In this document: positions 20,001 to 64,000 of the stretch, one piece after another
Position numbering within the stretch: position 1 is the stretch's first letter
Layout: each line of letters opens with the position of its first letter
Source: Balanoglossus misakiensis
Taxonomy: Eukaryota > Animalia > Hemichordata
Length of the DNA stretch: 64,000 nt
Reading direction: 5' to 3'
NCBI GenBank assembly: GCA_040954595.2
Contig: CM082580.2
Location: 1,850,783 to 1,914,782 of the forward strand
The notes under the pieces: generated by a model
The model's database searches: none
What the model was told of the DNA's origin: nothing
Seen by the model: only the letters and a program-made list of their open reading frames with translations
Position numbers and translations under genes: made by a program

Positions 20001-20397
20001 ATGGGGGGGGGGGGGTAATTGCTATTACCGGTATATCAACTCGATTTCATAACCTTTTTAAAGATTAAAATTGATAAGAATGGGATGCATTCAATTCTGG
20101 AGAATGTTGTTTGCAACCAATCTCTGTATCAACTTAAATTTAAAGTAAATAAGAATTAAAGTAGCGACGACAAATAAGATGACGAACATGTTTTGGTCTT
20201 TCATTCCAAATAGACTCATCACAGGCATCAGAAAATTTAAACCTTTGGAGTTTCACTCTTTCTTCTGACATTTTGCTTGCTCTTGATGAAAAAAGAGAGG
20301 TTTTCTTGGCATTACTCGATCTTTCCGCAGCATTTGATACTGTGAACCATACCATTTTATATGGAAAGCCATGACTGTCTTATGATGTGTGACAACT

Positions 20398-20745
20398 TTA
20401 TGTGGTGAGGTTATTACTTGACGTGATGGGGAAATGCAACGACGTGGGGAGGTTATTGCTTTACGTGATGAGGACATGCAACGACGTGGGGAGGTTATTT
20501 CTTGACGTGATGGGGAAATGCAACGACGTGGGGAGGTTATTATTTTGGCGTGATGGGGACATGCAACGACGTGGGGAGGTTAATTCTTGACGTGATGGGG
20601 ACATGCAAAGACGTGGGGAGGTTATTTCTTGACGTGATGGGGAAATGCAACGATGTGGTGAGGTTATTTCTTGACGTGATGAGGACATGCAACGACGTGG
20701 GGAGGTTATTGCTTTACGTGATGAGGACATGCCATTATGATGTGA
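20398..20745. repeat. Left subterminal 42-bp tandem array (about 8 units)
   Basis: Unit GACGTGGGGAGGTTATTTCTTGACGTGATGGGGAAATGCAAC. It produces 14-aa periodicity in the spurious ORFs here. Confidence 0.92.
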
Positions 20746-20794
20746 CGAGGGCGCTGTTACGGAGGGCGCTCTTTTTCTATTGATAAAAGTCAAA

Positions 20795-23700
20795 ATGGAG
20801 GACTTGCTGAGGAGAGGGGGGCTCATACGACTCCTCCCAAGATTTCAGGAGGAAAGAATCGATATTACAACAGTATTGTCCTTAACCAATGAAGAATTGG
20901 CTCGATTGGGAGTTACCAAAGTAGGTGATCGTTCTAGACTGAGGGATTTATGCAGACCCCACCACATCAAATGAGTTTTCTCGAAGTGACCAAGCTGGCG
21001 TCGCCAGCACTAGTGGCACTGCAAGTTCAAGTCACGTACAAAGGGAGCGGTCACTTTTGTTTACGCCTAATCAAAGCAGAGCACAACACAGTTACGGCCG
21101 AAGAAGTCGTGCAAAGAAATGTAAGCGGACATGGACTGGACAGTTTGTTTGTCTTGCTGATCGTAACACCAGTAGCGTCCCATCGTCTGAAATCAAGCAG
21201 ATACTAACTCGTGCTGGACTTGGACTGAAACGGCTAACTCTTGACAACGAATGTAATAGCAGAGACTTGATGGATACTTTGATGTCTGATGCTGGATTTC
21301 CACAAATACGTGATTGTGGGGGTGTAGAACTGCTATATTATGCTCATGCTAAGAAACTAAATGTAATCACATGCAGTTGGTCAGTTCCTGATTTGAAAGC
21401 TAATTTAGGGGCTCAGAGTAAGATATACATAAGACCTGTGCAGAAAAACTTGTCTACTAAACCCATCAATCCAGAGACTGCTGAAGATCCAATAACCCAG
21501 ATGTGTATGGGCTGTTTAAATGAATATGATATTCGTGAATTACGTGAACACATGATGACCTGCACAGCACCTTTTGATTCTGATGAAGAAGAGGTTACAT
21601 ATTGTGACAGGAATGAAGAACAGGATGATAATACTATTATTATTGATCCAGTAGAAAACACAAGGTGAGTTAATCTGCCAATGCTCTCTTTGTTGATAAG
21701 TATAGTTTATCTTATTCTGATGTAATACATGTCAAACAATGCAAAATGTTTTAATTTAATGAAAGCTTCTTTGTATACCTGTATGTACATGTATTTTTGT
21801 AACGCATTTTGTACCTTAATGGTAAATAACAACAAAGCATGTCCGACAGTCATAACAATAGTGCCATTTCCCAATGTGTGAATAGTGGTTTTTCTCCCTG
21901 GTGATGGCAGTAATTGCAAGAATTGTGTGTGGTTTACCTGCCAAACACGGACACTATCTAGTATATCATACAATGTATCTGTGCACAATGTCAGTGTATT
22001 AAATGCAGGGCAGCAAGGTCAAAGGATGGAATTTCTCTGAGTTTTAATGTATGCATTGCTTGTTTTCCCCCAGTGACACCACTAGTGGTACCACAATTGT
22101 AACACCAAATGAGAGTGTTGGCCAGTCTGCTGCTGCTTCAGATCCAGAAATCACTGTAAGTTATCATTGATGGCAATTTGATGTAACTGCTTGTATCAGT
22201 ATGTGTGAAATGCTGGATTCATAGACAGCAGTGTTTCATCCAGGATGGCATCAATGGGGTGGGGCATCATGCCATGCCCCCTTTGCTAGAATATTTGAGG
22301 GGGATTTCACTCTGGCTAGGGGGTATGTAACATCTCCAACATGTGAGTGACCAATTTGTAAGGGGCACTACCCCCATAACAAATTACTAAGGGGTGAAAC
22401 CCATCACCCCTCCCCCGATCTACATGAAACACTGGGGACATAGTAACCTATCCATATCACTTTGATATTTGCAAGTAAACATTGTACAAATCAATTGTGA
22501 AACTTGTAAAATAGACACATTAGATATAACAGATCTAAAGTCCCAGTCAATGTCACTATTGATTATTTTTTCACAGGTTATGTTTTGTGTGTCAATTGCA
22601 AACTCTTGTTTTACTCCTGAAAGCATGGTAAAATTGACCTGTAAATGTGTAAACAGCATGGGTATTGTTGACAAGTACATTCTAGTCTGGACTGAAATTA
22701 AAACCGCAGCAATATCAGTGAAGCTTTGTCTCTGTTTTAACAAGCTGAACATTGGGTATTTCAACATTCTATCAGAAGTAGAACAAGAATGAGCAATTGA
22801 CGCACACACAAAAAAAGTAAAAAAACATCAAAGTGACAATTTGATTTACTGGGGCTTAACCCTTTCACCCCAGTTCCCACTTTCGAGGTCCAACTTTACC
22901 ATAGGGTGAAACATTGGGGTTGGACAGAACCATGGTGGTGAAAGGGACATTTGGCACCATGTGGAACTGAAATCTTAAAATCCAATTCTGCATTAATTGT
23001 GTTAATTCACACAAAGTAATGTGAATGATTTTTCATTTTTTGTAGCCATACCACACCAGTGAGATGTGTACAGTGGATGATGTTGTGAATACAACTTATG
23101 AATACTGCAACGACAACAATGTATCCGATCCTGTTGAAATTTTGAGAATTTTTCAAAGTAAAATGGTAACTGGTCGGAAATTGGACATCGAAGATTCAGG
23201 TGATGTTGTCGAAGGTGAAACCAATTTCATTATGGTCAACAGATCTGAAGTCTTACGCACAGCATTTGATGAGATTGGTTTGATCAACGACCCAAGACTG
23301 ACTTTGGAAGTGGAATTCTATGGAGAGGTATGTATTTTGCAAGTTTTCTATATATATACATTCCTCATCGAATTGAAAATGGATAAACTTGGCATGTACT
23401 GCACTCAAGACGTAAGAAGTGATTAAGCAACAAATCTTTACAAATTACAGGAGGCCAGGGACTTTGGTGGCCCCAGGAAAGAATTTTTTACTGAAGTACT
23501 GAGGGAAATAAATGACAAGTACTTTGAAACTGGTTTAAAACCACATCTTGAGGAAGACTATAAAATTATTGGCACCATAATGGGTAAGTTGTACAATACT
23601 TATTTAAGAGCCATGCACAGCAATTTGAACATTTTGTTTGTTTCTCAATGAATTATAATAAACATGGTTGTCCATTATTCATATTGACATTTCAATATTC

Positions 23701-24891
23701 TTTGCTAATCAATGTATAGGACTAAGCACACTACAGAATGGAAGAATTCCACAGTTCATGAGTGAAGAAGTGCGACAAGAGCTATTTGAAAAGCCTTCTC
23801 CATCCCCATGCATTGAGAAACTGAGACAAGGGTTTGACAAACTTGGCATTTGCAAGGTATGTCGTTATTCAGTCAACAAGTTGGTATGATAAAAGTATAA
23901 TTTGTAATAAATTCCCTTGTCAACCTCACAAGCTACATTGATTAGCTCATAGTCCTTATAGCAATCTTCTTGTAACTAGAACAATTTAATGTTAAATCAT
24001 TGCTATTTAAAGGGGAAATCTGGCCTAGCTGATTTCTACATAATTTGGTAGCTTTGAGGTCACTCTTTCAGAATAAAACATATTTGACATGTATAAGTCG
24101 CGCAATTTTTTACAAAATCGAGGGAAAGTTGGCAGAATTTCCAATATGGCATTTACTGTAATTTGAATCATGGAAAAAAGCGCCAGGACCAACTTCCGCC
24201 CACCATGGTGTGGGTGATACCATTCTCCGATTGGTGTCACTTGGCGACAGACTAGGTGTATTTGCATAGCTATTGTTTGTACTTTGCGTCAGTTGATAAA
24301 TAATCATCAGCAAAGTTGAAAATCTATTGACAGCTTTCATGAGCTATAACCCGTGAAAAAATATGCAAATACGCCTAGCCTGTCACGCAGTGACACCAAT
24401 CGGAAAATGGTATCACCCACACCAAGGTGGGCGGAAGTTGGTTCTGGCGCTTTTTTCCATGATTCAAATTACAGTAAATGCCATATTGGAAATTCTGCCA
24501 ACTTTCCCTCGATTTTGTAAAAAATCGCGCGACTTATACATGGCGAATATGTTTTATTCTGAAAGAGTGACCTCAAAGCTACCAAATTATGTAGAAATCA
24601 GCTAGACCGGATTTCCCCTTTAAGTAGTCTTACAGTTGTTTGTTTCATTGCAGCTTGTTAAGAAACTACCCCTGCTTGTGCATTTATTTGTGCCAAATGC
24701 CAACAGTGCCTTGACATTCAGAAAGCTGAAGACCCAATTAAAACCCAAGTTCAGTCCCGATGGATCTAATAATCGCAGAGAAGAGAACAACGTGTACGCG
24801 AGCTTCATTTCGTACATGACAGAAGCTGCAGGCAAGTATTTTTGCAGACATAAAACACAAAAGGGGGATTCTGTCTGTCTGTATGCATGCA

Positions 24892-24929
<38 letters not shown>

Positions 24930-25582
24930 TTTGTTTGTATACTTACCATTTTTATTGACAAATCCGATCCTCTAAACCACTTGTCACATTGCTTTCAAAT
25001 TTGAATGGCATGTTACTATGATTTGTTGAGTGAAACTGCTTCTTATATTTGTGTTTGTATGGACACTTTTTGCCATTTTTGGTCCCCAAAAAAACAAAAA
25101 CATTTCTCTAGAACCGCATGTCAGATTGCCATGATACTTGATAGGCAAGTTAATTTTCTCTACATTTCTGTATTTATAATATTTGCTTAGATCATGTCTG
25201 CTAACAAATTTCATGTGCATGTTATTTTTATTCCAGTGTACACATATTTCTGTGCAATCCCTAAATGGGACAAAAGTGTTATTGACGGTGTTTTTATACT
25301 TCTCTCTTCAATTTAGGTGGTAGGAGATGCGATGGTGACATCACCCTCAATCATATACTGAAATTTGTCACATGTGATCTTGAGGAACCAGTTCTTGGCT
25401 ATACAGAAGCTCCTGCTATTGATTTTTATGAAGCAGGATCTTCTTTCATTCCGACAGCCAACACCTGTATTAATATGTTGAAGCTGCCCAGAGGTACCCA
25501 GGACAATCCACTTCCAGACAGAGACATTCTGTTTAAACTATATGATTATGCGTTTTCAAATAACTATTTTGGTGCGGTATAA
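20795..25582 (+). CDS. 7-exon SAM / UBZ-like zinc finger / HECT E3 ubiquitin ligase (about 648 aa after correcting one frameshift near 20957-20960)
   Basis: Exons 20795-21664, 22074-22155, 23046-23327, 23451-23583, 23720-23856, 24654-24831 and 25317-25582 join with consistent phases (five GT-AG introns, one GC-AG). The N-terminal SAM reads LLPRFQEERIDITTVLSLTNEELARLGVTKVGDR. A CxxC-x11-H-x3-C motif lies at 21504-21563. HECT motifs are LEVEFYGEEARDFGGPRKEFF, ILKFVT, PTANTCINMLKLP (Cys codon 25466-25468) and the terminal YFGAV*. Confidence 0.88.
22860..22946. mobile_element. Tiny piggyBac-like MITE in intron 2
   Basis: TTAA|CCCTTTCACC ... GGTGAAAGGG. The right-hand TTAA is missing. Confidence 0.45.
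24011..24619. mobile_element. Fold-back Kolobok-like MITE in intron 5 of the HECT gene
   Basis: TTAA at 24007-24010 and 24620-24623 flanks AGGGGAAATC...GATTTCCCCT. The arms are about 260 bp and near-perfect, as shown by the mirror ORFs 24025-24267(-) and 24363-24605(+). Confidence 0.92.
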
Positions 25583-25667
25583 CTTTTTATACCACTCCAG
25601 GTCATGTGACCTATTGTTCTTGCCATCCATTTTTTCTAGGCAAATTAGTAATCAGCTACCGTATACT

Positions 25668-26095
25668 TTTATTAGCTCTGCTCTCACTTGTGTCAGCCGA
25701 GCTATAGCAGTAGGTTGATAAGTGTCCGTCCGGCGTCCGTCAACTTTTGGTATTTCAATCTTCTTCTTTAAAACAACTTGACATATTTAGCTGAAATTTG
25801 GTTGGAATATGTTTTATGGTGTCCTTAACTGATTTTGTTAATTTGGATTTGATAGGGTCATGAATATGCAAATTAGAACCTTGGTGCTTCCTTTTGTTGT
25901 TCTTTAGGATTCAATTCTTTCTTTCTTTAGCACAATGAATCAAGCTGAATTTGGATAAATACTTGTGATGTCTATGTTTGGTTTTGTTCAATAGAATACA
26001 ATTGTTATGAATTAAAACCTAGGGTATTCATATCATTGCCCAGGTTACACTGTTAAAGTCAGCAGAGCTCTTTTGACCGACAGGTCACGTGTTTC
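25668..26095. mobile_element. Possible non-autonomous Helentron/DINE-like element
   Basis: It starts in a T-run with TTATTAGCTCTGCT, has a GTCC-type microsatellite near the 5' end, an inverted AGCAGAGCT and a short terminal stem (TGACC-GAC-AGGTCA) before TTT. The call rests on architecture only. Confidence 0.45.
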
Positions 26096-27008
26096 ATTAT
26101 ATGTCCTAGGATATATAATACAGTTTAAGCATTTAAAAAATCCAGTTGGTGTGTTCATTGAAAGCAATCTAGTAAGTCTCTCAAAAGTTACATGTTGTAT
26201 GTATTGGTAGTGATTTTTCTAAGATAGTTTTTCTGGGGTCACTGATCAAGAATTACTTTGGTTAATACTTGGCCAGGATGCTCTCTGTTAAGATTGTTGT
26301 GTTCAGTGTAGCTTGCAACTTTTACAAAGTTGAATAAAAAAGAGTTATCTTGAAAAAAAGTTGTTTCTATTGTGATATTTTGAGGCTCATGCTATAGAGT
26401 CAGTTGGTCAATGAGTAGTCGTGCACCCGACTGATATTGCAAATAGTCATGTGACCTGGTGGTCATACTGGGTTTTCTGAAAAAAGTAAAAATGGCATTT
26501 TATCCTTAACTAAAGTACAAATCAAGTTTTATTTTGGTGTGCGATATACATGTCTTCTGCCCTTCAAAGTTTGCCAATAAATCAAGAGTAATCACATGAC
26601 TTTTGCCGCCATATTGAATTTAAAAATATCCCAGAACCAGTTATTACTGAGTTGTACGATTATGTGTATGTGTTCCCCTAATTGAGGTCTTGAAAGATTA
26701 TCAGATTTCAGAGCGGTGTACTGAGGGTGGCCATATTGTTTTTCCCAAAAAATACAAAACGACTTGCATTCCAAAACCAGACTGCTATTTTAATAATTAT
26801 GATTGAGAAATACAAATGTGTGGTTCGTTCATGTTCAAGCATGGCAAATGTACACATTCTTATTTCTCCAGTAGTTCTAGGCCATGCTTGAATTCCAGAC
26901 ATATCATGAAGCAAATTTGAATGTTAGTTGCAGGAATATACTACTATACACTGCAACTCATGTGGTAACCGTATTCAGAATGATTGGTTGCCTTGCATAA
27001 CAATTATA

Positions 27009-28379
27009 TCAAGGATTTCCTGTAAAGTTTTGAATAATTGATAATGCATTCCTGTCTATGTCAATACCATGATTTTCTGATTGCCATGTTGGTGATATTG
27101 ATCGTGAAAGTAGAGCCAAGCATTCATCAGTTGGTTGCATGGAAGGGCCATCCAAGATTGGTCTGGAGTGATTTGTGGGTTCAAAGTCAACGTCTCCTTC
27201 GACTCCATACTCGTCAATATCACTGTCAGACAGGTCGATCCCAATGGGATTTTGTAACTGACCTGCAACCCATAAACGAAGTGGTGATGAACCCACTGTC
27301 CTCAATCTGTGACAAATCCAGGCATTTCGCCAGAGTTCTAATTTGTGATTGATCCTTTCCAGAAACACATAATGAAGGGCTGCAATGTGAACAGGATTTA
27401 ATGGATCCAGAATGGAATTGTCCTCCAAAAAGTAAAATACCTCATAGTACAGAGCAAGCACTCCTTCATAAGCATCACGCCATAACCTTTCAATTCTCTG
27501 GTTATGCACACTGCTACCTGTGATCATACTGCCACAGTTAACTCCTCGCTTTTCTATCATAAAATCCGCAATATAGACATTTTCCATGCCTTTGTCAGAT
27601 CAAACCCTGCTTGGAATGCCATAGGTTCTAACAGCTGATTTAAAGCATGCCAATAAGGTATCTGCTCTGTTGTTATCCCTGCATTGTAGCATTACAGGAA
27701 GTCGGCTGAATCCATCAATGCCACCAATGATAACTATTCCCCAACGTATGAGTTTGTGGTTTGTATCAATATGCCAGAGTTGATTTGGGCCTTTAACATT
27801 GTACACACGCCTCAGTAATCTACCACGTTTCCTTGCTTCAACTCCATTTCCATCAATGCGGTGTACACTATCCCTAAGTCTCTGGTGTTGTACTTTAATT
27901 CCAGTCTTTTCCATGAGCAAGTGCGTCAACATGTTATGCCCACAATAGGGGAACTCTTTTGTTAGTTCCTCCATATGAACATCAAGTTCTTCATCTAAAA
28001 TATCACTAAACATCATTTTGCTGAGCCCATACTGTCTCATTCTACGGTATATTGTACTTCCTGACACAATGAGCATTGAGGCTATTTCTGAGATCTTGAA
28101 TCCTTGGTCCAAATGGGTTTCCAAAATGTGTCTAGGTATGAGAAATTGAGGAGCACCAGAAGAACTTTGCACTTGTGGAGGAGTTCCACTGCCAAATGTT
28201 ACACATGCTGTACGCAAAGCCATTTGATCAGCAGGGTTTTTCAAATTAACAGATTCCAGTTCATACCTTGACAAGTTACACACAATGTCAGGTGTTATGT
28301 TCTCCATGTCAAATGTCCTGGATAGATGCCCAAGGTTTCGTTGAAGCAGTAAAGCTGACATATTTGTCACTGAATCCAT
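27009..28379 (-). pseudogene. IS3/IS481-like DDE transposase (integrase core) with N-terminal SAM and HTH domains, about 456 aa, one in-frame stop
   Basis: ORFs 27600-28403 and 27009-27587 share a frame and are separated by TGA at 27602-27600 (PSRV*SDKGMEN). Catalytic motifs are WHIDTNHKL...GGIDGFSR, SDKG and GSSVHNQRIERLWRD. The HTH reads GFKISEIASMLIVSGSTIYRRM. Confidence 0.93.
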
Positions 28380-28539
28380 TTTTGCAAAATCTGCAAACTC
28401 CAATTCAATATGGCAGACTGAATATGAAGCTACGCATCATGGGATATCCATAAAATATCAACCATTAGATACAAAATAATCAACATATAAGAACTAGCTG
28501 TCATCCCACATAATATATATTCTCAACACATAAGGAAAA

Positions 28540-29182
28540 AACCTCACCACATCATACCATTACGTCATCACATAAGGAGATAACCTCACCACATCGTTAC
28601 ATTACATCATCACATAAGGAAATAACCTCACCACATCATGACATTACATCATCACATAAGGAAAAAACCTCACCACATCATGACATTACGTCATCACATA
28701 AGGAAAAAAACCTCACCAAAACATGCCATTACGTCATCACATAAGGAAATAACCTCACCACATCATTACATTACGTCATCACATAAGGAAAAAACCTCAC
28801 CACATCATGACATTACGTCATCACATAAGGAAAAAACCTCACCACATCATGCCATTACGTCATCACATAAGGAAATAACCTCACCACATCATTACATTAC
28901 GTCATCACATAAGGAAAAAACCTCACCACATCATGCTATTACGTCATCACATAAGGAAATAACCTCACCACATCATTACATTACGTCATCACATAAGGAA
29001 AAAACCTCACCACATCATGACATTACGTCATCACATAAGGAAAAAACCTCACCACATCATGCCATTACGTCATCACATAAGGAAATAACCTCACCACATC
29101 ATTACATTACGTCATCACGTCAAGAAATAACCTCCCCACATCGTTGCATTTCCCCATCACGTCAAGTAATAACCTCACCACA
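28540..29182. repeat. Right subterminal 42-bp tandem array (about 15 units), inverted relative to the left array
   Basis: Unit ACCTCACCACATCATGACATTACGTCATCACATAAGGAAAAA. ORF 28638-29285 shows the 14-aa period. Confidence 0.93.
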
Positions 29183-30506
29183 TAAAGTTGTCACACATCA
29201 TAAGACAGTCATGGCTTTCCATAATTTTACTCAATCGCTTAAGAGACTGCTTTGGTCTTTCAGATACTGTTCTCATGTGGTTTAAATCATACCTTTCCAA
29301 TCGTAGTCAGTGTGTACTTGTAAATTCCACCCAATCACCTTTCTATCCACTCGACACTGGGGTACCACAGGGATCAGTTCTTGGTCCCATACTTTTCAAT
29401 ATGTACACGTCTCCATTAGGTGAATTAGTTCCTTTTTCAATGTCGAATTTTATGTTTTGACTGAACTTGCGTGTCACCTGACAGGTCTTCGCATTCATCA
29501 GAAGCTATCGTGCGTCGCTGAGATTTGATTCTTCATAAAAGAAAATTATTTCATAACCATACCAAATAAAACATTTCCAGAAATTTAGAAGTTTGCAGAC
29601 TTTTCTGCTAGTTGTCTATTTAGTGTTGAAGTCACGCTGAACTGCCAAATTTAACACAGACTCGCCGTCAACACTCAAACAGTGTACTTCTTCTACGAGT
29701 GTGTCCTGTAACTGCCTTCCTTCAATAACCATACAACAACAAATAGACGGTAAACGTTTATGCAATACCAATGGATTTATGTTTTTAAACTGGTCGACAG
29801 TCGGGAAGTATGCATGAACAATCGATTGATTGGATTCCCCAGCGATACTATTGTATCTTGTGATTTTTTGTAGTAAAACTGTGGAAATCGGCAGGCTGCA
29901 TTGCCAGTTGTTCTGCACATGCGCAGTTCCTCTGTCTTGAAAGAAAAGTCAAATTTCACCAACTTATAAATGTGCATTCGGAAAATAAACCCCAAATGTT
30001 TTCTTTGTGACCAAAAATACTGCCAGTGTGATTTTGTGCTCAAATCCAAGCTATTATTATTTAAATTGACTTGTGATACCCTCTCTTAGCACAAAAAGCA
30101 TAATTTCAGCCCCAAAATGGTTGCCATAGAAACATGTGATCACTAAACGGATATCAATTTTTTGTGGAAATCGGACCAATTATTATTAAAATTATTATTT
30201 TTATATAATTCTTTATTTAATTAAAATCTGACTTTGAGGCACATATTACCTTAATTTTGATCAAAATTTAATTAGCCAACCAAGGAACATGCATACTGGT
30301 ACCTTCCTTCTAGTATTTAAGAGGGAACCAGTTTTGGCCAAATCATTGGGAATTATAGCAACATTCTGCTGGTCAATGCATGTACAATGGTGACAACACC
30401 AGTCTTCAGGTACTACTATTCCCTGAAAGCCTCATGAAATGCCAAATTTCACATTTTTTTCCAAAAATCAAATCTTCTACCTTTTATATAAAATCTTCAT
30501 CATTAA

Positions 30507-42555: not shown

Positions 42556-43824
42556 CGCTTTTCAAACTGTCACTCGTATCTTCTTGAGAAAACTCACAAC
42601 TTGGGTTTTAAACAAAAACAATGTTGTGGAATAAACAACTACAAACACTAAGTAAAGGTCAGAAAAATTGCATCAAAACTAAAAAAAAGTATTCAAACAA
42701 GATAAATGATTACAATCAAAGATAAAATAAAAGATTTCAAACAATTTGCAGATTTGCCATTCAGGCAAATACAGCCAAAGCAAGAGATGTCAAGCAAATC
42801 GAGCAACTCTTACAACAAGGTGGAAAGTACACAAGTCATGCAGACTGAATGTTTAACAGTGACTGATTGAATGTTGATGCCATAGCATATTGGATGGTAT
42901 TGTGAAATGTGTCTGTCTACAGTGTGTTTCAATGTAGCTCCCAGCAGTATTCACTTTGCGTGAATTTCTCCAGGTCTTCAACCAATTTGTCAGTCTTGTG
43001 GATCATTTGTGAGGTGCTATGATTAACCCCTGCAACTGTCAATCCAGCAGAGGCAATGTTATTAACAATGAATTGCACATGCATAACTGACTTAGAGGGC
43101 CCAGAGGGAAAACCAGCTTCATTCAAAAACAAAGAATAGCCGGTGCCTTGGGGGTCTAAACCATGGGATTTGCAACAATAACACTGTTGTCCCCTGATAT
43201 CAATGCATCCGTAGAAGAATTTGAAAAGCTTGGTGATAAAAATGCAGCAAATATGCAACATGCAAATGAGAGTAGTCCCTATAATGACAGGAAGCCTTTT
43301 AATGGTCTCATAAAATAAACTAGCAGAAAAGTCGTAAAAAATTTCCCTGTGATGCATCGTTGGAGATCATACATTTTAAGAAATTTTTTCTATGGATATG
43401 AAAATAGTGGTACTTAAAGAGTGTGACAACCTATGAACAAGGATTAATCCGCACTACTTCAGCCTTGAAACAGAAATGCATTAAATTTTTGATAAAAACT
43501 ATACTACGGTTCTTACAAAATATGTGCTGTCTTTTACCTGGCTACATGTTCCCTTTTGTTGAAAGAAGTTTGACACATCAAAGTCCAGCCAGCTTTTGAA
43601 AGCATGGGAACATTGTGACCCGCAGCAGGTTAGAAAGGGGGACAGATCACATTTTCGGGGGACAATATATCAGGACAGTGTTCTCCCTGGGAAAAATCAT
43701 AGAGTCAGGGCTAATTCCCATAAAATTTACATAATCATAGCTTCTTTTGGACAAATTTTACCACGGCAGTTACTTATCAAGTATGCTGACATTGGCACAT
43801 CGTACTTACTAAGAAAGAATATTT

Positions 43825-43968
43825 TAGCAATAAGCCCCGCCGCAGGCGGGTATACACGAGATTTGGGTACAATTCGAGACATATAGCACGAGCTGTCAGG
43901 CGAGTGCTATATGGAGCGAATTGTACCCAAATCGAGTGTATACCCGACTGAGGCGGGGGTTATTGCTA
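43825..43968 (+). repeat. 144-bp imperfect palindrome with tandem GA/GA mismatches
   Basis: TAGCAATAAGCCCCGCC...TACAC-GA-GATTTGGGTACAATTCG...TAGCAC-GA-GC TGTCAG GC-GA-GTGCTA...CGAATTGTACCCAAATC-GA-GTGTA...GGCGGGGGTTATTGCTA. Confidence 0.88.
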
Positions 43969-45330
43969 TTATATTAACAATTGTTTTCGTGGCATATCAG
44001 TGTCATTTTCTTACCGAAACGGCGTCAGAAAGAGAAATTACGATCATGAAACATGGCGACGATGAATGTAAACACGAGCGGCCGGGATTGAGCATTAAAC
44101 ATGAAGCAGACGACAAAAAGTGACAAGATGGGCATCGCGCGTGGCAAAGTGACAAATATTTCCACAGAGCAGTTCCAAAATAAAATGTCCGTTAATTCAA
44201 CAGTATTTTTGTTTTATTTATTTGGTTTAAACACGCGCGACTGTGGTTTAACCGCACATTTTGGCTGCCGTATGCTAGTTCAGGGGCCTGTTTTAGCACT
44301 GCTAGCAGTGCATTATTGAGTATTTTAGCATCGCTGGATTGAGCTCTCGTCCAATCAGAATTGTGGACGGTAGCATGATATAAAATAATGTCGTTTTTAT
44401 ATCCAGTGTAAAGTAGGCCTAGTGAAATACTATTACTAGTGAAAGTATTTGAAATTGACCTGGGGTTACGAAGTCCGCTCCAATAAAACACCCTGATGTT
44501 CCCACGACTTGCTATGCCCCTCAAAAACTGTGATGTTGTCATATTTTTTACGCGCTAGCAACAACCAGTAGTAAAAGAGACTGATAAATGGATGCTGATA
44601 TGATAGCCTGTTTATTGATGTTTTAAAATGGGGTAGAAATTTTATAGATGTCAGACATTTAGAGGCTAAAAAATGGCAAATATTCAACAGTGTCGAGCAG
44701 TTTTCAAGTGGGAGTTGGACACCTTCCCACTATATGACAATTTACTGGCATACGGACGGGACCTTTGACACAAGCCACTTCTTGTGTCAGCTGCTCGATC
44801 GCGCGAATGGGTGGTTCAATTCAAGACACTGCGTTGTTTATCCTGATGGTGGTTGTTGTTTCTTTTTTGTTTGTTTGTTTGTTTGTTTATTTATTTGATT
44901 GTTTGTTTCCCCGAACAGAACGCCTAATTCACCTGTGTCCTGGATGAAACACTGCCTTGCCCATGCCAAGTTCACAAGTTTTCAGTGCCGGTTGTCTTTT
45001 ACATCCTACTACATGTATCTGTTTTTTTTAGAAATTGGACATATCCTAAGACAAGACATCTCAGATTTTGTGTTAATTATGATTTACTGCCATTGGCGAA
45101 GAAATGTTATCGTGCATTGTTTTGTGTTGTTTTTTTGTTGTTGTTTTTTTTTGGGGGGGGGAGATCAACATTCAGGATCAGATTAATTACTTTGATAATA
45201 TTTTTTTTGCAATCATACCCCACCCTATTCTAAACAAAATCAAATAGTGCAAAGTAATTCAAAGTTTACCTTATCAAGTAGGCATAAATCAGGGCAGGTG
45301 GCAATGAAATTTATCTGCCCTTCGCAATTA

Positions 45331-46870
45331 TTACCGGCCCTGGGCCGCTGTTAATTTTATAAGCCTGTGCAGACGCGCAGAAACTTGGCATGACCTCCAA
45401 CAAAAGTTGCTTCATCATTTGTCATGTTTAGCTGATTTGTTACAATGCGCGCACGCGTTCAGTGCATTGCTTGTGTTACTGGGCTATTGATGCTATTTAT
45501 AGGACGCCTGTCTAAAGATAACTTGTTCACTGAATGAAATGGCAGCGCACTGCTCTTGACAGCGTGCACAGCTGCGTTGCTTCTAGGGTGATTCAAGCCG
45601 TGGAAGGTGTGAAATCACTCAGTTGTGTTCACTAAATTATCAAAAATTGAAAGGGAGTAGTAAGTTCCAGTGAAAGCAAAGGTGGACGCAAAGCAAAGTG
45701 CAGGGGTGACAATCAGTCACATTGTTGCTCACTCAGGAAGAATGCATCACAGTGACCCATGAAGATTATTCCGTTGCGATAATCCAACATTTATTGCGTC
45801 AAATGTCGCAAGGCCGCACGCTAGCTGAAACACTGAAAGAGAGAGCATATTTGGTAGGCAGTCATACAACATTGGCACTTTTGTTTAAGTGTAAAGACAA
45901 TCTGACTTTTGCCAAATATTCAGAGGGTATCAACTTCAAGGACAGAAAACGTGGACATTCCTGCCTGCTATTAAGGTTAGTGGTTAGAGGTTAATGTTAG
46001 AGGTTAGATTGGGGTTAAAGATTAAGGTGCAATTGCAATAGAAGGCTGCAATGTTCAAGTGTAACTGTCCTGAAAGCAGTCATCCGAATATCTGAAGGCC
46101 TACAAGGTCCTAACCAGTAGACTGTGATAATTTGTGATTTCTAGACACAAGCAAGACATTCCTTCACTTGGTAACAGTATAATTTTATCATACAAGTAGC
46201 TTTTGTCTGTCTATCAGAACTATCCGCTTTGCTTTGTAAAATTTCAGATAATCAGTTGGAAAAACAAATTTGTGGCTAAGAATCCTAAATAGGTGCTCTC
46301 TCTGTGTTTAAAACACTATTAATACTATCTAAAATCACAAATTATAGAAATAAATCAATATACAGTGTTTCAGCTTGCATGCGGCCTTGCGACATTTGAT
46401 GCAATAAATATTGGATTGTCACAACAAAATAAATCTTCATGGGTCACTGTGACACATTCTTACTGAGTGAACAACAATATGACAGATTGTCACCTCCCAT
46501 ACTTTTGCTGTGCATCCACCTTTGCTTTCACTGTAACTTGCTACTTCCTTTCAATTCTTGACAATTAGTGAACACAACTGAGTGATTTCACGCCTTCAAC
46601 GGCTTGAATCACCCAAGAAGCAACGCAGCTCTGCACGCTGTCAAGAGCAGTGTGCTGCCATTTCATTCAGTGCACAAGTTATCTTTAGACAGGCGTCCTG
46701 TAAATAGCATCAATAGCCTAGTAACACAAGCAACGCACTGAGCGCGTGCGCGCATTGTTAACAAATCAGCTAAACATGACAAAAGATGAAGCAACTTTTG
46801 TTGGAGGTCATGCCATGTGTCTGCGCGTCTGCACAGGCTTATAAAATTAACAGCAGCCCAGGGCCAGTAA
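45331..46870. repeat. Long inverted repeat: arms about 45331-45716 and 46485-46870 around a spacer of about 770 bp
   Basis: GGCCCTGGGCCGCTGTTAATTTTATAAGCCTGTGCAGACGCGCAGA... is the near reverse complement of ...TCTGCGCGTCTGCACAGGCTTATAAAATTAACAGCAGCCCAGGGCC. Confidence 0.9.
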
Positions 46871-48741
46871 ACTGCAAATGAACATGGTCACCACCATGAA
46901 AAAATGCTAGTTTTCTAGTGTTTTTTTTGCCAGTTTTTTTCTTATAACTAATATCTATGGACGGTTGTGTCTGAAATAAAGATTAATAATAATAATAAAA
47001 CGTTGCATTTCCCACTATATAATTTCATAAACGAAGCATGATCTCATCCACTACAACTGTGGAAGTAAATGTACTCCGCTGGGACATTACATTTTCATTT
47101 TTGATCGCAATATTGCAGGAATTTTCGATTTTCTTTAATTTTTGGCCATTTTGTCCAAAATAAGTGATCTTGATATATACTATTATGAAATATCATTTAA
47201 TAGACATAATTCAAAGGATATATGGGATTATTTAAAACTTAAATTTTTTATCCAGTTGCAGCTCATGTACCTTTAATCTAATCCTGAATGTTGATCTTTC
47301 CCCCCCCCCAAAAAAAAAAAAAATCACAGAAAAACTCGGTCACAGATATCAAAAACAGAGGAATTGCGTAAACATCAGATCAGCTGATTGCAGTCAATCC
47401 ATGTACTGTACATTTCTAGTATCATATTCAAACATCAGGAAATAAATAATGAAGGTTTATTAACGCATGCAAAAATTCATTTAAGGGTTCTGCTGAAATA
47501 TATTTGAAAAAGTTTTGATTTTTGTGAAATCTTGGTGAGGACTCAGGCAATATTTGCATTCATTGGCGTTCTCAGGAAAGTTCACGTATACGAGTGCTCG
47601 AAAGGTTGCATTACATAAACAATCTCGCCCTCGATCGACCCTCCATACCGCGTAGACAACATAACAGTGACAATTGCGGCATCACTTTTTACGTATAACT
47701 TTGTTGACATGACTGCTTGGTACATGGTACACGGTATGTATGGTGAACGAATGTCAATTCCAGTATCATCGAGAGGTTTGCTTTACGTGTGGGACCGAGT
47801 CATGTTGAAAACTGCGCGTGATTCAAGAGCAGATGACATGTAGTGCCGCATTAGGAAGAAAAAAATAAACAAATCGCTAGTCAAGGTCAGATTTAAAATT
47901 AATAAATATCGCAGTACATTGTATTTATTCTGTGAATGTTTGCATTTCTTTTTTAGCCCTTAATATGTTCGCATTGTTTGAAAGCTCCGTTATTCAGTCA
48001 GAAATTGTCCACGTCTGGCTGGTTCTTGAGTGTGTCGCGCGTCCACGTCATAACACGATACATTATCTGTAATAATTTACAGTTATGACGTCACAAAATT
48101 CACTTGATAAAGCTATAATATTAAATATTTTATATCGATGTTGAGGGGCCTTAGTGATGTCCAAAAGAAGCTATGATTATGTAAATTTTATGGAAATTAG
48201 CCCTGAATCTATGATTACTCCCAGGGAGAACCCTGTCCTGATATATTGTCCCCCGAAAATATGATTTGTCCCCCTTTATAACCTGCTGCAGGTCACAATG
48301 TTCCCAAGCTTCACAGTACAATATTTTACCCACAATTCTCCGTGATTTGTATCATTGAACGTTGCCCATTTAATAACTTTTTCTTTTTCACATGCTAACA
48401 ATGATATGAAGTACATAGAAATATATTTATTTTTATCTAGGAAAAGTATGTTAAGCAATTAGAGTGAAAATTTCAGAATCAAAATTAGAAGCCATAGGAA
48501 TCTAGATATTCATGTACTGCAAATGTCACACTTTAGGGGAAACAAGCAATGACTAACTGGGGTGGCCAGTCTCTGTTGAAAGTTAACATGTAAATTTCCT
48601 TTGTTCTGTCAATAGAAAAATCATTTTTTGTTTGATTGAACGGGTATTTCAAGTGTCCCTGTGTTACTTCAAACTTCTTTGTATAGCTGGCTATGCAATT
48701 GCTTGATTATTTTATAAAATTAGTATCTCCTCTCTCAATAA

Positions 48742-56800: not shown

Positions 56801-57509
56801 AGTGATCCAATGTAAACTTTTCTGTACATTATAAAAACAATAATTGTAACTCATAGAAAATTGACATCTTTTCTGAATATTGAAGGTTTGATGTCAAATG
56901 GGCAATTTGAATCACTGGTTATCAATTTTGAGACGGTTTTGGCAACCAGACCTGATGTAAGAATTAACACCTCATGCAACCCATTGTCTATGGGGCCGAG
57001 CCTCAGCGCCTATACATAAACTTTGTGTGTGTGGACACAAGCGACTCAAAGGATTAATTCTCTGTGTTTACAAAAGGCAAATAGTGTCTCCGAAACGTTT
57101 CAAATTTTTACCAGTGTGACCGTGGTATTATAAACATGTACCCCACACGTTGAATGACACACACACTTACACCACACAAACAAACAAACAAACATAAATA
57201 CCCTATAACTATACTATATTATAACTAACTATAACTACAAGTAACAACTGACAAAATAACTTAATATACCTATATAAATAAACTGTTCAAATACAGATGT
57301 GTACACTGAAATTAACTAAATTTACAAAAATATATAAAAATGCATTGCAGGGATGCCCCCAAAACTACCGTAAGCACTGCAAGCTGGGAGTCCATGCGTC
57401 TACGGACCTCTGTTGACAGATGAGGCATCATGGAGACTGCATGGTAATGGGACTTCTGGTCCAAATCATCTGGCCGCATTCCTCTGCTATGGTGGCATAC
57501 AATTCAATC

Positions 57510-60500
57510 TCCGCCATCCTGCAACGCAGCATCTAGTTTCTGCATGGTACCATTGGTAGTCGGACTTCAATCTGCCAGTTGGCACACAGATCAGTGTTCT
57601 CCATCCTGCAAACCAGCATCTAGTCTCTGCATGGTACTATTGGTAGTCGGACTTCAATCTGCCAGTTGGCACACGGATCAGTGTTCTCCATCCTGCAAAC
57701 CAGCATCTAGTCTCTGCATGGTACTATTGGTAGTCGGACTCCAATCTGCCAGTTGGCACACGGATCAGTGTTCTCCATCCTGCAAACCAGCATCTAGTCT
57801 CTGCATGGTGCTATTGGTAGTCGGACTCCAATCTGCCAGTTGGCACACGGATCAGTGTTCTCCATCCTGCAAACCAGCATCTAGTCTCTGCATGGTGCTA
57901 TTGGTAGTCGGACTCCAATCTGCCAGTTGGCACACGGATCAGTGTTCTCCATCCTGCAAACCAGCATCTAGTCTCTGCATGGTACTATTGGTAGTCGGAC
58001 TCCAATCTGCCAGTTGGCACACGGATCAGTGTTCTCCATCCTGCAAACCAGCATCTAGTCTCTGCATGGTACTATTGGTAGTCGGACTTCAATCTGCCAG
58101 TTGGCACACGGATCAGTGTTCTCCATCCTGCAAACCAGCCTCTAGTCTCTGCATGGTACTATTGGTAGTCGGACTTCAATCTGCCAGTTGGCACACGGAT
58201 CAGTGTTCTCCATCCTGCAAACCAGCCTCTAGTCTCTGCATGGTACTATTGGTAGTCGGACTTCAATCTGCCAGTTGGCACACGGATCAGTGTTCTCCAT
58301 CCTGCAAACCAGCCTCTAGTCTCTGCATGGTACTATTGGTAGTCGGACTTCAATCTGCCAGTTGGCACACGGATCAGTGTTCTCCATCCTGCAAACCAGC
58401 CTCTAGTCTCTGCATGGTACTATTGGTAGTCGGACTTCAATCTGCCAGTTGGCACACGGATCAGTGTTCTCCATCCTGCAAACCAGCCTCTAGTCTCTGC
58501 ATGGTACTATTGGTAGTCGGACTTCAATCTGCCAGTTGGCACACGGATCAGTGTTCTCCATCCTGCAAACCAGCCTCTAGTCTCTGCATGGTACTATTGG
58601 TAGTCGGACTTCAATCTGCCAGTTGGCACACGGATCAGTGTTCTCCATCCTGCAAACCAGCCTCTAGTCTCTGCATGGTACTATTGGTAGTCGGACTTCA
58701 ATCTGCCAGTTGGCACACGGATCAGTGTTCTCCATCCTGCAAACCAGCCTCTAGTCTCTGCATGGAACTATTGGTAGTCGGACTTCAATCTGCCAGTTGG
58801 CACACGGATCAGTGTTCTCCATCCTGCAAACCAGCCTCTAGTCTCTGCATGGTACTATTGGTAGTCGGACTTCAATCTGCCAGTTGGCACACGGATCAGT
58901 GTTCTCCATCCTGCAAACCAGCATCTAGTCTCTGCATGGTACTATTGGTAGTCGGACTTCAATCTGCCAGTTGGCACACGGATCAGTGTTCTCCATCCTG
59001 CAAACCAGCATCTAGTCTCTGCATGGTACTATTGGTAGTCGGACTTCAATCTGCCAGTTGGCACACGGATCAGTGTTCTCCATCCTGCAAACCAGCATCT
59101 AGTCTCTGCATGGTACTATTGGTAGTCGGACTTCAATCTGCCAGTTGGCACACGGATCAGTGTTCTCCATCCTGCAAACCAGCATCTAGTCTCTGCATGG
59201 TACTATTGGTAGTCGGACTTCAATCTGCCAGTTGGCACACGGATCAGTGTTCTCCATCCTGCAAACCAGCATCTAGTCTCTGCATGGTACTATTGGTAGT
59301 CGGACTTCAATCTGCCAGTTGGCACACGGATCAGTGTTCTCCATCCTGCAAACCAGCATCTAGTCTCTGCATGGTACTATTGGTAGTCGGACTTCAATCT
59401 GCCAGTTGGCACACGGATCAGTGTTCTCCATCCTGCAAACCAGCATCTAGTCTCTGCATGGTACTATTGGTAGTCGGACTTCAATCTGCCAGTTGGCACA
59501 CGGATCAGTGTTCTCCATCCTGCAAACCAGCATCTAGTCTCTGCATGGTACTATTGGTAGTCGGACTTCAATCTGCCAGTTGGCACACGGATCAGTGTTC
59601 TCCATCCTGCAAACCAGCATCTAGTCTCTGCATGGTACTATTGGTAGTCGGACTTCAATCTGCCAGTTGGCACACGGATCAGTGTTCTCCATCCTGCAAA
59701 CCAGCATCTAGTCTCTGCATGGTACTATTGGTAGTCGGACTTCAATCTGCCAGTTGGCACACGGATCAGTGTTCTCCATCCTGCAAACCAGCATCTAGTC
59801 TCTGCATGGTACTATTGGTAGTCGGACTTCAATCTGCCAGTTGGCACACGGATCAGTGTTCTCCATCCTGCAAACCAGCATCTAGTCTCTGCATGGTACT
59901 ATTGGTAGTCGGACTTCAATCTGCCAGTTGGCACACGGATCAGTGTTCTCCATCCTGCAAACCAGCATCTAGTCTCTGCATGGTACTATTGGTAGTCGGA
60001 CTTCAATCTGCCAGTTGGCACACGGATCAGTGTTCTCCATCCTGCAAACCAGCATCTAGTCTCTGCATGGTACTATTGGTAGTCGGACTTCAATCTGCCA
60101 GTTGGCACACGGATCAGTGTTCTCCATCCTGCAAACCAGCATCTAGTCTCTGCATGGTACTATTGGTAGTCGGACTTCAATCTGCCAGTTGGCACACGGA
60201 TCAGTGTTCTCCATCCTGCAAACCAGCATCTAGTCTCTGCATGGTACTATTGGTAGTCGGACTTCAATCTGCCAGTTGGCACACGGATCAGTGTTCTCCA
60301 TCCTGCAAACCAGCATCTAGTCTCTGCATGGTACTATTGGTAGTCGGACTTCAATCTGCCAGTTGGCACACGGATCAGTGTTCTCCATCCTGCAAACCAG
60401 CATCTAGTCTCTGCATGGTACTATTGGTAGTCGGACTTCAATCTGCCAGTTGGCACACGGATCAGTGATCTCCATCCTGCAAACCAGCCTCTAGTCTCTG

Positions 60501-62760
60501 CATGGTACTATTGGTAGTCGGACTTCAATCTGCCAGTTGGCACACGGATCAGTGTTCTCCATCCTGCAAACCAGCCTCTAGTCTCTGCATGGTACTATTG
60601 GTAGTCGGACTTCAATCTGCCAGTTGGCACACGGATCAGTGTTCTCCATCCTGCAAACCAGCCTCTAGTCTCTGCATGGTACTATTGGTAGTCGGACTTC
60701 AATCTGCCAGTTGGCACACGGATCAGTGTTCTCCATCCTGCAAACCAGCCTCTAGTCTCTGCATGGTACTATTGGTAGTCGGACTTCAATCTGCCAGTCG
60801 GCACACGGATCAGTGTTCTCCATCCTGCAAACCAGCCTCTAGTCTCTGCATGGTACTATTGGTAGTCGGACTTCAATCTGCCAGTCGGCACACGGATCAG
60901 TGTTCTCCATCCTGCAAACCAGCCTCTAGTCTCTGCATGGTACTATTGGTAGTCGGACTTCAATCTGCCAGTCGGCACACGGATCAGTGTTCTCCATCCT
61001 GCAAACCAGCCTCTAGTCTCTGCATGGTACTATTGGTAGTCGGACTTCAATCTGCCAGTCGGCACACGGATCAGTGTTCTCCATCCTGCAAACCAGCCTC
61101 TAGTCTCTGCATGGTACTATTGGTAGTCGGACTTCAATCTGCCAGTCGGCACACGGATCAGTGTTCTCCATCCTGCAAACCAGCCTCTAGTCTCTGCATG
61201 GTACTATTGGTAGTCGGACTTCAATCTGCCAGTCGGCACACGGATCAGTGTTCTCCATCCTGCAAACCAGCCTCTAGTCTCTGCATGGTACTATTGGTAG
61301 TCGGACTTCAATCTGCCAGTCGGCACACGGATCAGTGTTCTCCATCCTGCAAACCAGCCTCTAGTCTCTGCATGGTACTATTGGTAGTCGGACTTCAATC
61401 TGCCAGTCGGCACACGGATCAGTGTTCTCCATCCTGCAAACCAGCCTCTAGTCTCTGCATGGTACTATTGGTAGTCGGACTTCAATCTGCCAGTCGGCAC
61501 ACGGATCAGTGTTCTCCATCCTGCAAACCAGCCTCTAGTCTCTGCATGGTACTATTGGTAGTCGGACTTCAATCTGCCAGTCGGCACACGGATCAGTGTT
61601 CTCCATCCTGCAAACCAGCCTCTAGTCTCTGCATGGTACTATTGGTAGTCGGACTTCAATCTGCCAGTCGGCACACGGATCAGTGTTCTCCATCCTGCAA
61701 ACCAGCCTCTAGTCTCTGCATGGTACTATTGGTAGTCGGACTTCAATCTGCCAGTTGGCACACGGATCAGTGTTCTCCATCCTGCAAACCAGCCTCTAGT
61801 CTCTGCATGGTACTATTGGTAGTCGGACTTCAATCTGCCAGTTGGCACACGGATCAGTGTTCTCCATCCTGCAAACCAGCATCTAGTCTCTGCATGGTAC
61901 TATTGGTAGTCGGACTTCAATCTGCCAGTTGGCACACGGATCAGTGTTATCCATCCTGCAAACCAGCATCTAGTCTCTGCATGGTACTATTGGTAGTCGG
62001 ACTTCAATCTGCCAGTTGGCACACGGATCAGTGTTATCCATCCTGCAAACCAGCATCTAGTCTCTGCATGGTACTATTGGTAGTCGGACTTCAATCTGCC
62101 AGTTGGCACACGGATCAGTGTTCTCCATCCTGCAAACCAGCATCTAGTCTCTGCATGGTACTATTGGTAGTCGGACTTCAATCTGCCAGTTGGCACACAG
62201 ATCAGTGTTCTCCATCCTGCAAACCAGCATCTAGTCTCTGCATGGTACTATTGGTAGTCGGACTTCAATCTGCCAGTTGGCACACAGATCAGTGTTCTCC
62301 ATCCTGCAAACCAGCATCTAGTCTCTGCATGGTACTATTGGTAGTCGGACTTCAATCTGCCAGTTGGCACACAGATCAGTGTTCTCCATCCTGCAAACCA
62401 GCATCTAGTCTCTGCATGGTACTATTGGTAGTCGGACTTCAATCTGCCAGTTGGCACACAGATCAGTGTTCTCCATCCTGCAAACCAGCATCTAGTCTCT
62501 GCATGGTACTATTGGTAGTCGGACTTCAATCTGCCAGTTGGCACACAGATCAGTGTTCTCCATCCTGCAAACCAGCATCTAGTCTCTGCATGGTACTATT
62601 GGTAGTCGGACTTCAATCTGCCAGTTGGCACACAGATCAGTGTTCTCCATCCTGCAAACCAGCATCTAGTCTCTGCATGGTACTATTGGTAGTCGGACTT
62701 CAATCTGCCAGTTGGCACACAGATCAGTGTTCTCCATCCTGCAAACCAGCCTCTAGTTTC
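57510..62760. repeat. 87-bp minisatellite/satellite array of about 60 near-identical units
   Basis: Unit ATGGTACTATTGGTAGTCGGACTTCAATCTGCCAGTTGGCACACGGATCAGTGTTCTCCATCCTGCAAACCAGCATCTAGTCTCTGC. ORFs 57544 and 60502 show the 29-aa period. Confidence 0.98.
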
Positions 62761-64000
62761 CCGTGTCTGAAAAAAAGCAAACAGATGTAGTTCAGGAAAA
62801 TGAGGAGTAATTCAACTGCATGTGACACAAAAGACAGCTTCCCGCGATACAAACACCCTCTATAACTCCAGGCTTTGTCTTTGCAGTACACAGGCCATGT
62901 AATGCAAATTGTGTAAGAATCCATCAAGTTTTACTTTATGCAGGCTACATGACAATGATTCATGCTCAGTTTTTATGGACTTGTTATTTTGTGCCATTCT
63001 AAATGACTTCTGGGTGTTTGTAAAACTTGTAACGAGCAGTAATGAGCAGAAATTTGCAGTAATGACCAATAACATCCTAGAAATTGACAGAATGGGTAAT
63101 CACAAATACTGTGGAAATGACGATCGTTTCCAATTTCATAATAGTCATCTGAAGTTATGCAATCAGTGTCAATTATCATGACCATTTTCATGGAACTAAA
63201 CAGTTGTTTAATTTCATATCATTGCTGGAAAAAAGTCATCGTCAATGACTTCGTTCACGCTGGTTTGATCTTCTTGGTATTTGTGCTCAAGTGTTGGTTA
63301 GTTTTTGCATAACTTGAAATGTTGTGCGTTGACTTAGATGTTTTCATCTATGTTAACTGACATACCGTATATTCTCGCAATTAAGCGCCACCCATGATTA
63401 GGCGCCAGTGATACCTGACTTTGCTACTTTTTACTTAAAATTAAGCGCCAGGATTTTTTTTTTTTTGAGGTGTGTGGACGTACGTGAATCATGGCAAGTA
63501 CTACCAGGGTTTAGGGATCTTGTCAAAATCAATGGGGGCTTGCTGCGTGAATAATAATTGACCTGAGCAGACAATGCATGCTTTGGGCTGATGTGCTATT
63601 TATTTACAAATTACAAGATGAAATCGGGCACATGTCAACCTCCTAATTTATGTAAATTATTATTCACTGCAAAAGACACAGGTGCCGGGCGTCTAGACAC
63701 TTGTCTTTTTCCTGTCGATCGATCGGCACCCGCTTACGTTACCGGCACTACCACCCAAGTTTGACCATATGGCCAGGGCTTTGAAATAATAGGACTAGTT
63801 TCAAGTTGTGAATGTTTGCGGTATTAATTTTCTCATGAATATTCACACAAAGTGAGTATTCACGCAACCTTGCTTGACCTTACATGTGTGAGAGCATGTG
63901 ATTACAAAGACGCATTTGGACTAAACCACTATACGTCAGTAGATTTTGTTGATGGTTCAGCCAGCATACTGTAATGCTGCTCGTAGTATTCACTTCGTTG

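Follow-up and report, generated by a model that had tools for sequence, protein, structure and literature searches.

The IS3EU/GingerRoot DNA transposons are defined, in the sections of the source papers drawn on here, by TA..TA termini (TAYGG..CCRTA), a 6-bp target duplication, and a transposase with an integrase/IS3-like DDE domain whose first Asp lies 100–300 residues from the start and which has no HHCC motif (PMC10045372, PMC12730594); an excerpt of another paper describes IS3EU elements as largely unstudied (PMC11934779). The element analyzed here resembles them in its TA..TA termini, its 6-bp duplication and its integrase-like DDE domain lacking HHCC, as well as in the HTH-like N-terminal region of its transposase and the presence of a second, oppositely oriented gene, so far as these features are given in the corresponding parts of PMC10045372, PMC12730594 and PMC6839031; in the rust-fungus families treated in those parts the second gene is an alpha-kinase. 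It differs from the described elements in that its second gene is a predicted SAM-HECT ligase gene and its transposase starts with a SAM domain. The words "HECT" and "ubiquitin" have no occurrence in the main texts of PMC10045372, PMC12730594 and PMC6839031, nor has "sterile alpha" in those of PMC10045372 and PMC12730594. In the wider literature that we searched we found neither a HECT gene in an IS3EU element nor a SAM domain in a transposase (Repbase reports and supplements, which lay outside the search, may note these domains).

Several other eukaryotic transposons carry two genes: PIF/Harbinger elements encode a transposase and a Myb/SANT protein, CACTA elements encode TnpA and TnpD, and Zisupton elements occur with a Ulp1-type protease and an F-box. 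The present element is like these in that a second element protein is thought to aid the transposase and in that ubiquitin-system domains are carried on a transposon; to our knowledge none of them has homologous N-terminal SAM domains on both proteins, or a HECT ligase. The other relevant systems are the hetero SAM pairs and cappers (ANKS3/ANKS6/BICC1, EphA2/SHIP2, EphA8/SASH1, CNK/HYP), which share the five-helix SAM fold with the domains described below. In such pairs one partner gives an end-helix with a Gly and basic residues and the other an acidic mid-loop. They are host signalling proteins whose binding has been measured, whereas here the pair belongs to a mobile element and its binding is predicted from surface conservation.

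A complete IS3EU/GingerRoot transposon in an acorn worm

The window, 64,000 nucleotides of Balanoglossus misakiensis DNA (assembly GCA_040954595.2, contig CM082580.2, positions 1,850,783 to 1,914,782), contains at positions 20360–29223 a complete 8,864-bp element whose ends, target duplication and transposase features assign it to the IS3EU/GingerRoot DNA transposons. It has TATGG..CCATA ends and terminal inverted repeats whose first 83 bases are identical, and it is bordered on the left (20354–20359) and right (29224–29229) by the 6-bp duplication ATTTTA. Its transposase matches rva_4 with an E value of 3e-75, has the conserved residues D205, D262 and E297, and is predicted to have an integrase/IstA-like fold. 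Sibling copies were viewed through the Logan contigs of one sample, and one of these DNA contigs runs directly from 20353 to 29224 and so represents the empty site. Inside the ends are tandem arrays of a 42-bp unit; the left terminal repeat and its array (7.9 copies, 20402–20732) occupy 20360–20732 (+ strand), and the right array (15.7 copies, 28523–29183) and terminal repeat occupy 28523–29223 (– strand). The insertion splits what we take to be a LINE-type reverse-transcriptase fragment (+ strand, 29224–29460, with its other part at about 20252–20359), an identity judged from sequence motifs.

This copy of the element is decayed, with a stop codon in the transposase gene and a frameshift in the ligase gene (both described below). 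It has also aged, since high-copy repeats, recognized by a contig depth far above that of the rest, have been inserted in the ligase introns and between the two genes (22570–23200, 24003–24627 and 25460–26100); the one at 24003–24627, inside a ligase intron, is a MITE-like inverted-repeat element. Elsewhere in the window, an 87-bp unit is repeated about 60 times at 57407–62790; the repeats are about 95% identical to one another, and the array, which includes two long repetitive open frames, is likely a minisatellite. Long inverted-repeat pairs at 45331–46870 and 43600–48311 (194 and 154 nt, 94–96%) are probably other non-autonomous elements.

The transposase gene

The transposase gene is intronless and occupies 456 codons on the minus strand (27009–28379), as judged from its open reading frame, domain searches and a predicted model. 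Its protein is organized in the order SAM domain (residues 7–59; 28203–28361), linker, helix-turn-helix (28014–28145, from a domain search), second helical domain, rva_4/integrase-like DDE core (27255–27794, from the family alignment and Pfam, with D205, D262 and E297 in D-35-E spacing) and C-terminal helices, all on the minus strand. The full-length predicted model has a pTM of 0.81, and in a fold search its neighbours were integrases and IstA. Codon 260 is an in-frame TGA (27600–27602) at a position where 98% of the family has Arg, and an Arg codon is present there in a sibling or allelic copy from the same sample (contig depth 57/157). The SAM domain of the window copy also deviates at two conserved sites, with Arg14 where the family has Leu or another hydrophobic residue and Asn45 where it has Gly; DNA contigs of the same sample contain the family residues at both codons. 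A further form, found in DNA contigs from two runs of one sample, has a 281-bp deletion at 28210–28490 that removes the start codon and residues 1–57 but leaves, within a few codons upstream of the joint, an ATG in frame with the remaining transposase. It is either a naturally occurring variant without a SAM domain or simply a dead derivative. An intron as the source of this joint was rejected, as its ends are not GT-AG on the strand of the gene.

Transposase relatives numbered 2,487 among 7,993 candidates, and most of the best 120 cover 95–100% of the query; those with named sources come from corals, molluscs and others. We aligned 103 of 121 sequences and drew the SAM statistics below from the 100 with a SAM region of at least 50 residues; since the query used to choose these relatives itself has a SAM domain, they tell how well the domain is conserved and not how prevalent it is. 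Mean pairwise identity over the 103 is 48% in the SAM domain, 34% in the linker, 55–57% in the HTH regions, 67% in the DDE core and 36% in the C-terminus. An Atlas look-up, useful as a lead only, placed the transposase in a mollusc-rich cluster with rva_4 in 24%, SAM_2 in 13% and SAM_1 in 10% at 0.92. No longer fused form of the transposase N-terminus was present among the 109 candidates of a weak search, and the 68 pattern matches of a viral_contigs search included no relative.

The ligase gene

Facing the transposase gene is a spliced gene of about seven exons (20795–25582, + strand; recognized by exon homology and splice sites) which is predicted to encode a HECT E3 ubiquitin ligase with the catalytic Cys motif. 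Its product has the order SAM domain, conserved middle domain, C2HC-like finger, HECT domain. The SAM domain (20795–20953), identified by Pfam SAM_1, has a canonical end-helix motif, T/K-I/V-G-D-R-x-R. A one-base frameshift at 20954–20962 separates it from the rest of exon 1; homologous ligases have the SAM and middle domains in a single frame, and an 827-base contig that aligns over 828 bases of the exon 1 region with one gap, somewhere in the alignment, suggests another copy of the element without the frameshift. The middle domain (21123–21464) and the zinc-finger-like motif (21492–21569) were defined by homology. The middle domain has no Pfam name and is conserved whether or not an element has SAM domains; our impression is that it may be ubiquitin-like, and it is another candidate for transposase binding. 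Homology also locates HECT exons at about 23451–23583, 23721–23856, 24654–24831 and 25319–25582, the last of which matches Pfam HECT above the cut-off (E 2.1e-6) and includes the catalytic Cys (25466–25468) of P-T-A-N-T-C. The family profile matches AREL1, E6AP and Rsp5. The splice sites look canonical, and there is probably a GC-AG intron donor at 24832–24833, after the fifth or sixth exon. The closest named relative is from another hemichordate, Ptychodera flava (75% identity over 68% of the query). The ligase SAM comparisons below use the 38 full-length, non-duplicate sequences kept of 50 that match SAM among 161 ligase proteins.

Both proteins begin with a SAM domain

The initial annotation had described the two N-termini as matching SAM domains that could form a built-in docking pair. 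The peptides encoded at 28203–28361 (– strand) and 20795–20953 (+ strand) indeed align without gaps, with 16 of 53 residues identical. Chance similarity was rejected, since in 20,000 shuffles neither this identity nor the local score of 48 was ever attained. At the DNA level 63 of 159 bases are identical, so the relationship must be old; that the DNA was recently duplicated, or that the terminal repeats extend over the SAM regions, was rejected on the same 40% identity.

The ligase peptide matches Pfam SAM_1 above the cut-off (E 3.4e-7), which together with the catalytic Cys motif bears out the proposal that this protein is a HECT ligase beginning with a SAM domain. The window transposase peptide alone matches no Pfam family, and in the transposase family 33 of 103 members match SAM_1 and 33 of 103 match SAM_2 at E≤0.05 (best 5.2e-6). 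A profile of 13 transposase N-termini finds the tankyrase-1 SAM domain at an E value of 7.2e-5, and also CNK2, BICC1, SHANK, neurabin and ANKS6; of the 21 PDB entries that it matches at E≤1, 19 belong to SAM-bearing proteins. The AlphaFold2 model of this region has five helices (mean pLDDT 90.6), and with Foldseek the 32 rows among the matches listed have TMq values of 0.60–0.77, none at E≤0.001, as expected for only 60 residues; all 32 are SAM structures or proteins that bear a SAM domain. The tankyrase SAM domain (PDB 5kni), which polymerises with both faces, is the best match of the transposase domain among solved sequences and nearly the best by fold (TM about 0.74), with the differences that the transposase domain has lost the end-helix Gly and that the sequence match stops before helix 5. 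Finally, the transposase and ligase SAM profiles match each other end to end (probability 97.6, E 3.9e-12). The N-termini are thus almost certainly real and homologous SAM domains, and the two genes that encode them lie in a single transposon, as had been thought.

They are not "matching" in any closer sense. The two window domains are 29% identical, against a mean of 28% over all transposase–ligase SAM pairs, and each has closer matches in other elements than in its partner; pair-specific co-evolution of the two was rejected on these figures. From such comparisons, their likeness is to be read as a reflection of ancestry and not as that of a tuned pair.

SAM domains in related elements

Among metagenome loci, six carry complete SAM-less IS3EU elements of five families with the same TATGG ends and with target duplications (L018 9369–16812, L058 9375–15353, L060 83–7550, L063 9354–15947, L069 and L076). 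Three of these loci (L063, L069 and L076) have IS3EU elements nested in or beside others, and L069 and L076 each have a second transposase. At nine loci where a SAM-less transposase accompanies a partner with the conserved middle domain, neither gene has a SAM domain (eight were also searched leniently, with a best score of 1.8 bits). By eye, the SAM-less transposases of these nine loci and of the complete elements start with a long helical-looking region, of roughly 80–100 residues in the complete elements, and the partner ligases of L051, L058, L060 and L076 seem to start with one short amphipathic helix; these N-termini may represent an earlier helix-into-bundle dock, since replaced by the SAM domains.

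At L048 (8074–19300), and also at L040, L046, L049 and L053, there is an IS3EU-like family of several copies whose transposase is SAM-less and whose partner is HECT-like but divergent. In its L048, L049 and L053 members the facing partner gene has a SAM domain at its start, split by introns over three exons (one exon matches Pfam SAM_1 at E 2.5e-4), and the transposase has none. The match of this partner to the HECT family is weak, with three exons in the right order at E values of 0.0013, 0.053 and 0.12; the left TATGG end of the family occurs next to three distinct flanking sequences, and the right end is out of view. The ligase SAM domain is therefore more widely spread than that of the transposase and has a job without it.

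For SAM transposases both 5' ends are visible only in the window; at six other loci with such a transposase, only 3' parts of the HECT gene are in view. In a tree of HECT C-lobes, those encoded next to SAM transposases fall with those of SAM-bearing ligases, with weak support (SH-aLRT 80), and one protein nested among the SAM ligases there, P0137, has no SAM domain at its annotated start. The idea that the two SAM domains are gained and lost together thus holds for the window, which has both, and for the nine loci that have neither; it does not hold for L048, L049 and L053, where only the ligase has one, and since the transposase SAM domain lies on a single branch of the tree described next, the correlation comes down to one event.

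Origin of the transposase SAM domain

We built a DDE tree of 75 rows from the window and metagenome loci (the best 80 of 496), leaving out 6 of the 81 sources that had no DDE piece of >150 profile positions; L020 is on a long branch, and alignment A4 excludes L013 and L020 for stop codons. Every one of the 53 SAM-less transposases lies on one side of a branch with 100/100 support; the 14 with a SAM domain, plus two of unknown state, lie together on the other. We read this unrooted tree as one gain of the transposase SAM domain, given the much greater diversity of the SAM-less side and the longer helical-looking region that occupies the same position there.

The source of the domain was probably the element itself. 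Against the transposase-SAM profile the 38 ligase SAM domains score up to 52.3 bits (median 28.2), and 27 of them exceed the best PDB match (25.5 bits), solved structures being the comparison set from outside the element; the domain is thus nearer to the element's own ligase SAM domains than to solved ones, and is likely to have been copied from the partner gene. Both SAM domains start at the initiator Met, and both genes start 63–162 bases inside similar inverted arrays. The motif F-x-x-E/Q-K/R-I/V is found in 81 of 100 transposase and 30 of 38 ligase SAM domains, and a closing Cys in 97 of 100 and 20 of 38, respectively. The simplest explanation is a one-time copy out of the ligase gene of the same element.

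Surface asymmetry of the two domains

SAM domains usually bind mid-loop to end-helix (PMC6328559, in part), and a Gly where helix 5 begins is given, in the portion of PMC11820823 used here, as typical of those that bind through the end-helix face. This Gly is present in all 38 ligase SAM domains and in only 2 of the 100 from transposases. In the ligases it is followed by Arg at two surface positions (34/38 and 32/38), the first of which is Met or Ile in 93 of 100 transposases, and the ligase mid-loop is acidic, with a mean net charge of –2.5. In the helix-5 Gly and the acidic mid-loop the ligase domain agrees with SAM domains of the canonical two-faced polymerising kind; in the Gly the transposase domain departs from them. 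The transposases have instead kept an E-K-I-T-P-D family motif in the helix 2–3 region (T29 82%, P30 91%, D31 95%), and T-P-D presumably lies in the mid-loop. This motif is more conserved than the corresponding part of the ligase. In the transposases the altered helix-5 face, too, is strongly conserved (M53 90%, R56 100%, C59 97%, G63 92%). To judge from these residues, the ligase SAM domain looks two-faced and able to polymerise, and that of the transposase looks one-faced.

Possible roles of the SAM domains

Because the ligase keeps the end-helix Gly, and the transposase has lost it while keeping its mid-loop motif, one-way docking is predicted: with one usable face the transposase SAM domain would form no head-to-tail self-polymer, yet could accept the end-helix of another SAM domain. 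Under the reading that we favour, the ligase SAM domain would have been copied once onto the transposase, whose mid-loop would then accept the ligase end-helix, and docking would bring the HECT domain to the transposase; what is ubiquitinated might be the transposase itself, the transpososome once it is spent, or target-site chromatin. The direct SAM–SAM docking of the initial annotation stays tentative, at somewhat less than an even chance, and its specific form, the transposase mid-loop face on the ligase end-helix face, is possible to about the same degree. A complex prediction of transposase residues 5–190 with the 55-residue ligase SAM domain, run without alignments or controls, gave 0.16 twice against a mark of 0.34 and counts neither in favour of docking nor against it. 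In a fuller scheme, which is rather unlikely, one clade would have re-established the connection of its two proteins by copying the ligase SAM domain onto the transposase and reducing it to a single face; the transposase would then nucleate or cap a polymer of the element's own HECT ligase at the transpososome, and cut-and-paste transposition would involve SAM-recruited ubiquitination encoded by the element.

The conserved but non-canonical helix-5 face would also fit a new role within the transposase. The two domains may share ancestry and have independent roles, that of the ligase polymerising head to tail and that of the transposase serving as a structural or self-association module in place of the older helical N-terminal domain; we consider this the main rival, a real possibility if well below an even chance. 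The acidic mid-loop (–2.5) and canonical basic end-helix of the ligase SAM domains would be enough for self-polymerisation, a SAM ligase gene occurs beside the SAM-less transposase of L048, L049 and L053, the full-length transposase model (pTM 0.81) is compatible with a packed SAM domain, and the part of PMC6328559 used here includes SAM homodimers through non-EH/ML faces. Independent roles leave unexplained why the mid-loop is more conserved in the transposase than in the ligase, and why SAM is absent from both genes of the nine SAM-less loci. A free, conserved mid-loop can take any end-helix partner (PMC6328559, in part), and SAM proteins on chromatin are known (PMC11969672, PMC9973501), which would suit binding of the transposase SAM domain to a host SAM protein (a chromatin polymer, for example) or to nucleic acid, so as to steer the element to targets or away from silencing. 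This is improbable, and the greater nearness of the domain to the element's ligase SAM domains than to solved host ones argues against it. The position of the two gene starts, 63–162 bases inside similar inverted arrays, would ease a rearrangement between the element ends, and the domain might be a relic of one, dispensable for transposition, as the deletion form with its upstream in-frame ATG and the lack of SAM in 53 of 67 scored transposases might suggest. That it is a mere relic is nevertheless very improbable, since core and surface positions are nearly invariant in about 100 transposases of about 50% overall identity, and the domain is more conserved than the linker and the C-terminus (48% versus 34% and 36%).

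Significance

The IS3EU/GingerRoot superfamily is already known; what is new here is the transposase SAM domain, its single origin and the surface asymmetry. In the searchable literature eukaryotic transposases are not known to carry a SAM domain or to bring their own HECT ligase. If the one-way docking is true, it would offer a concrete and mutable interface, made of one ligase glycine and one acidic transposase motif, and it would provide a handle on the regulation or post-integration disassembly of eukaryotic transpososomes. If the intra-element copy is true, a domain has passed from one gene of an element to the other, and selection has kept it across invertebrate phyla, a conclusion that would stand even without docking.
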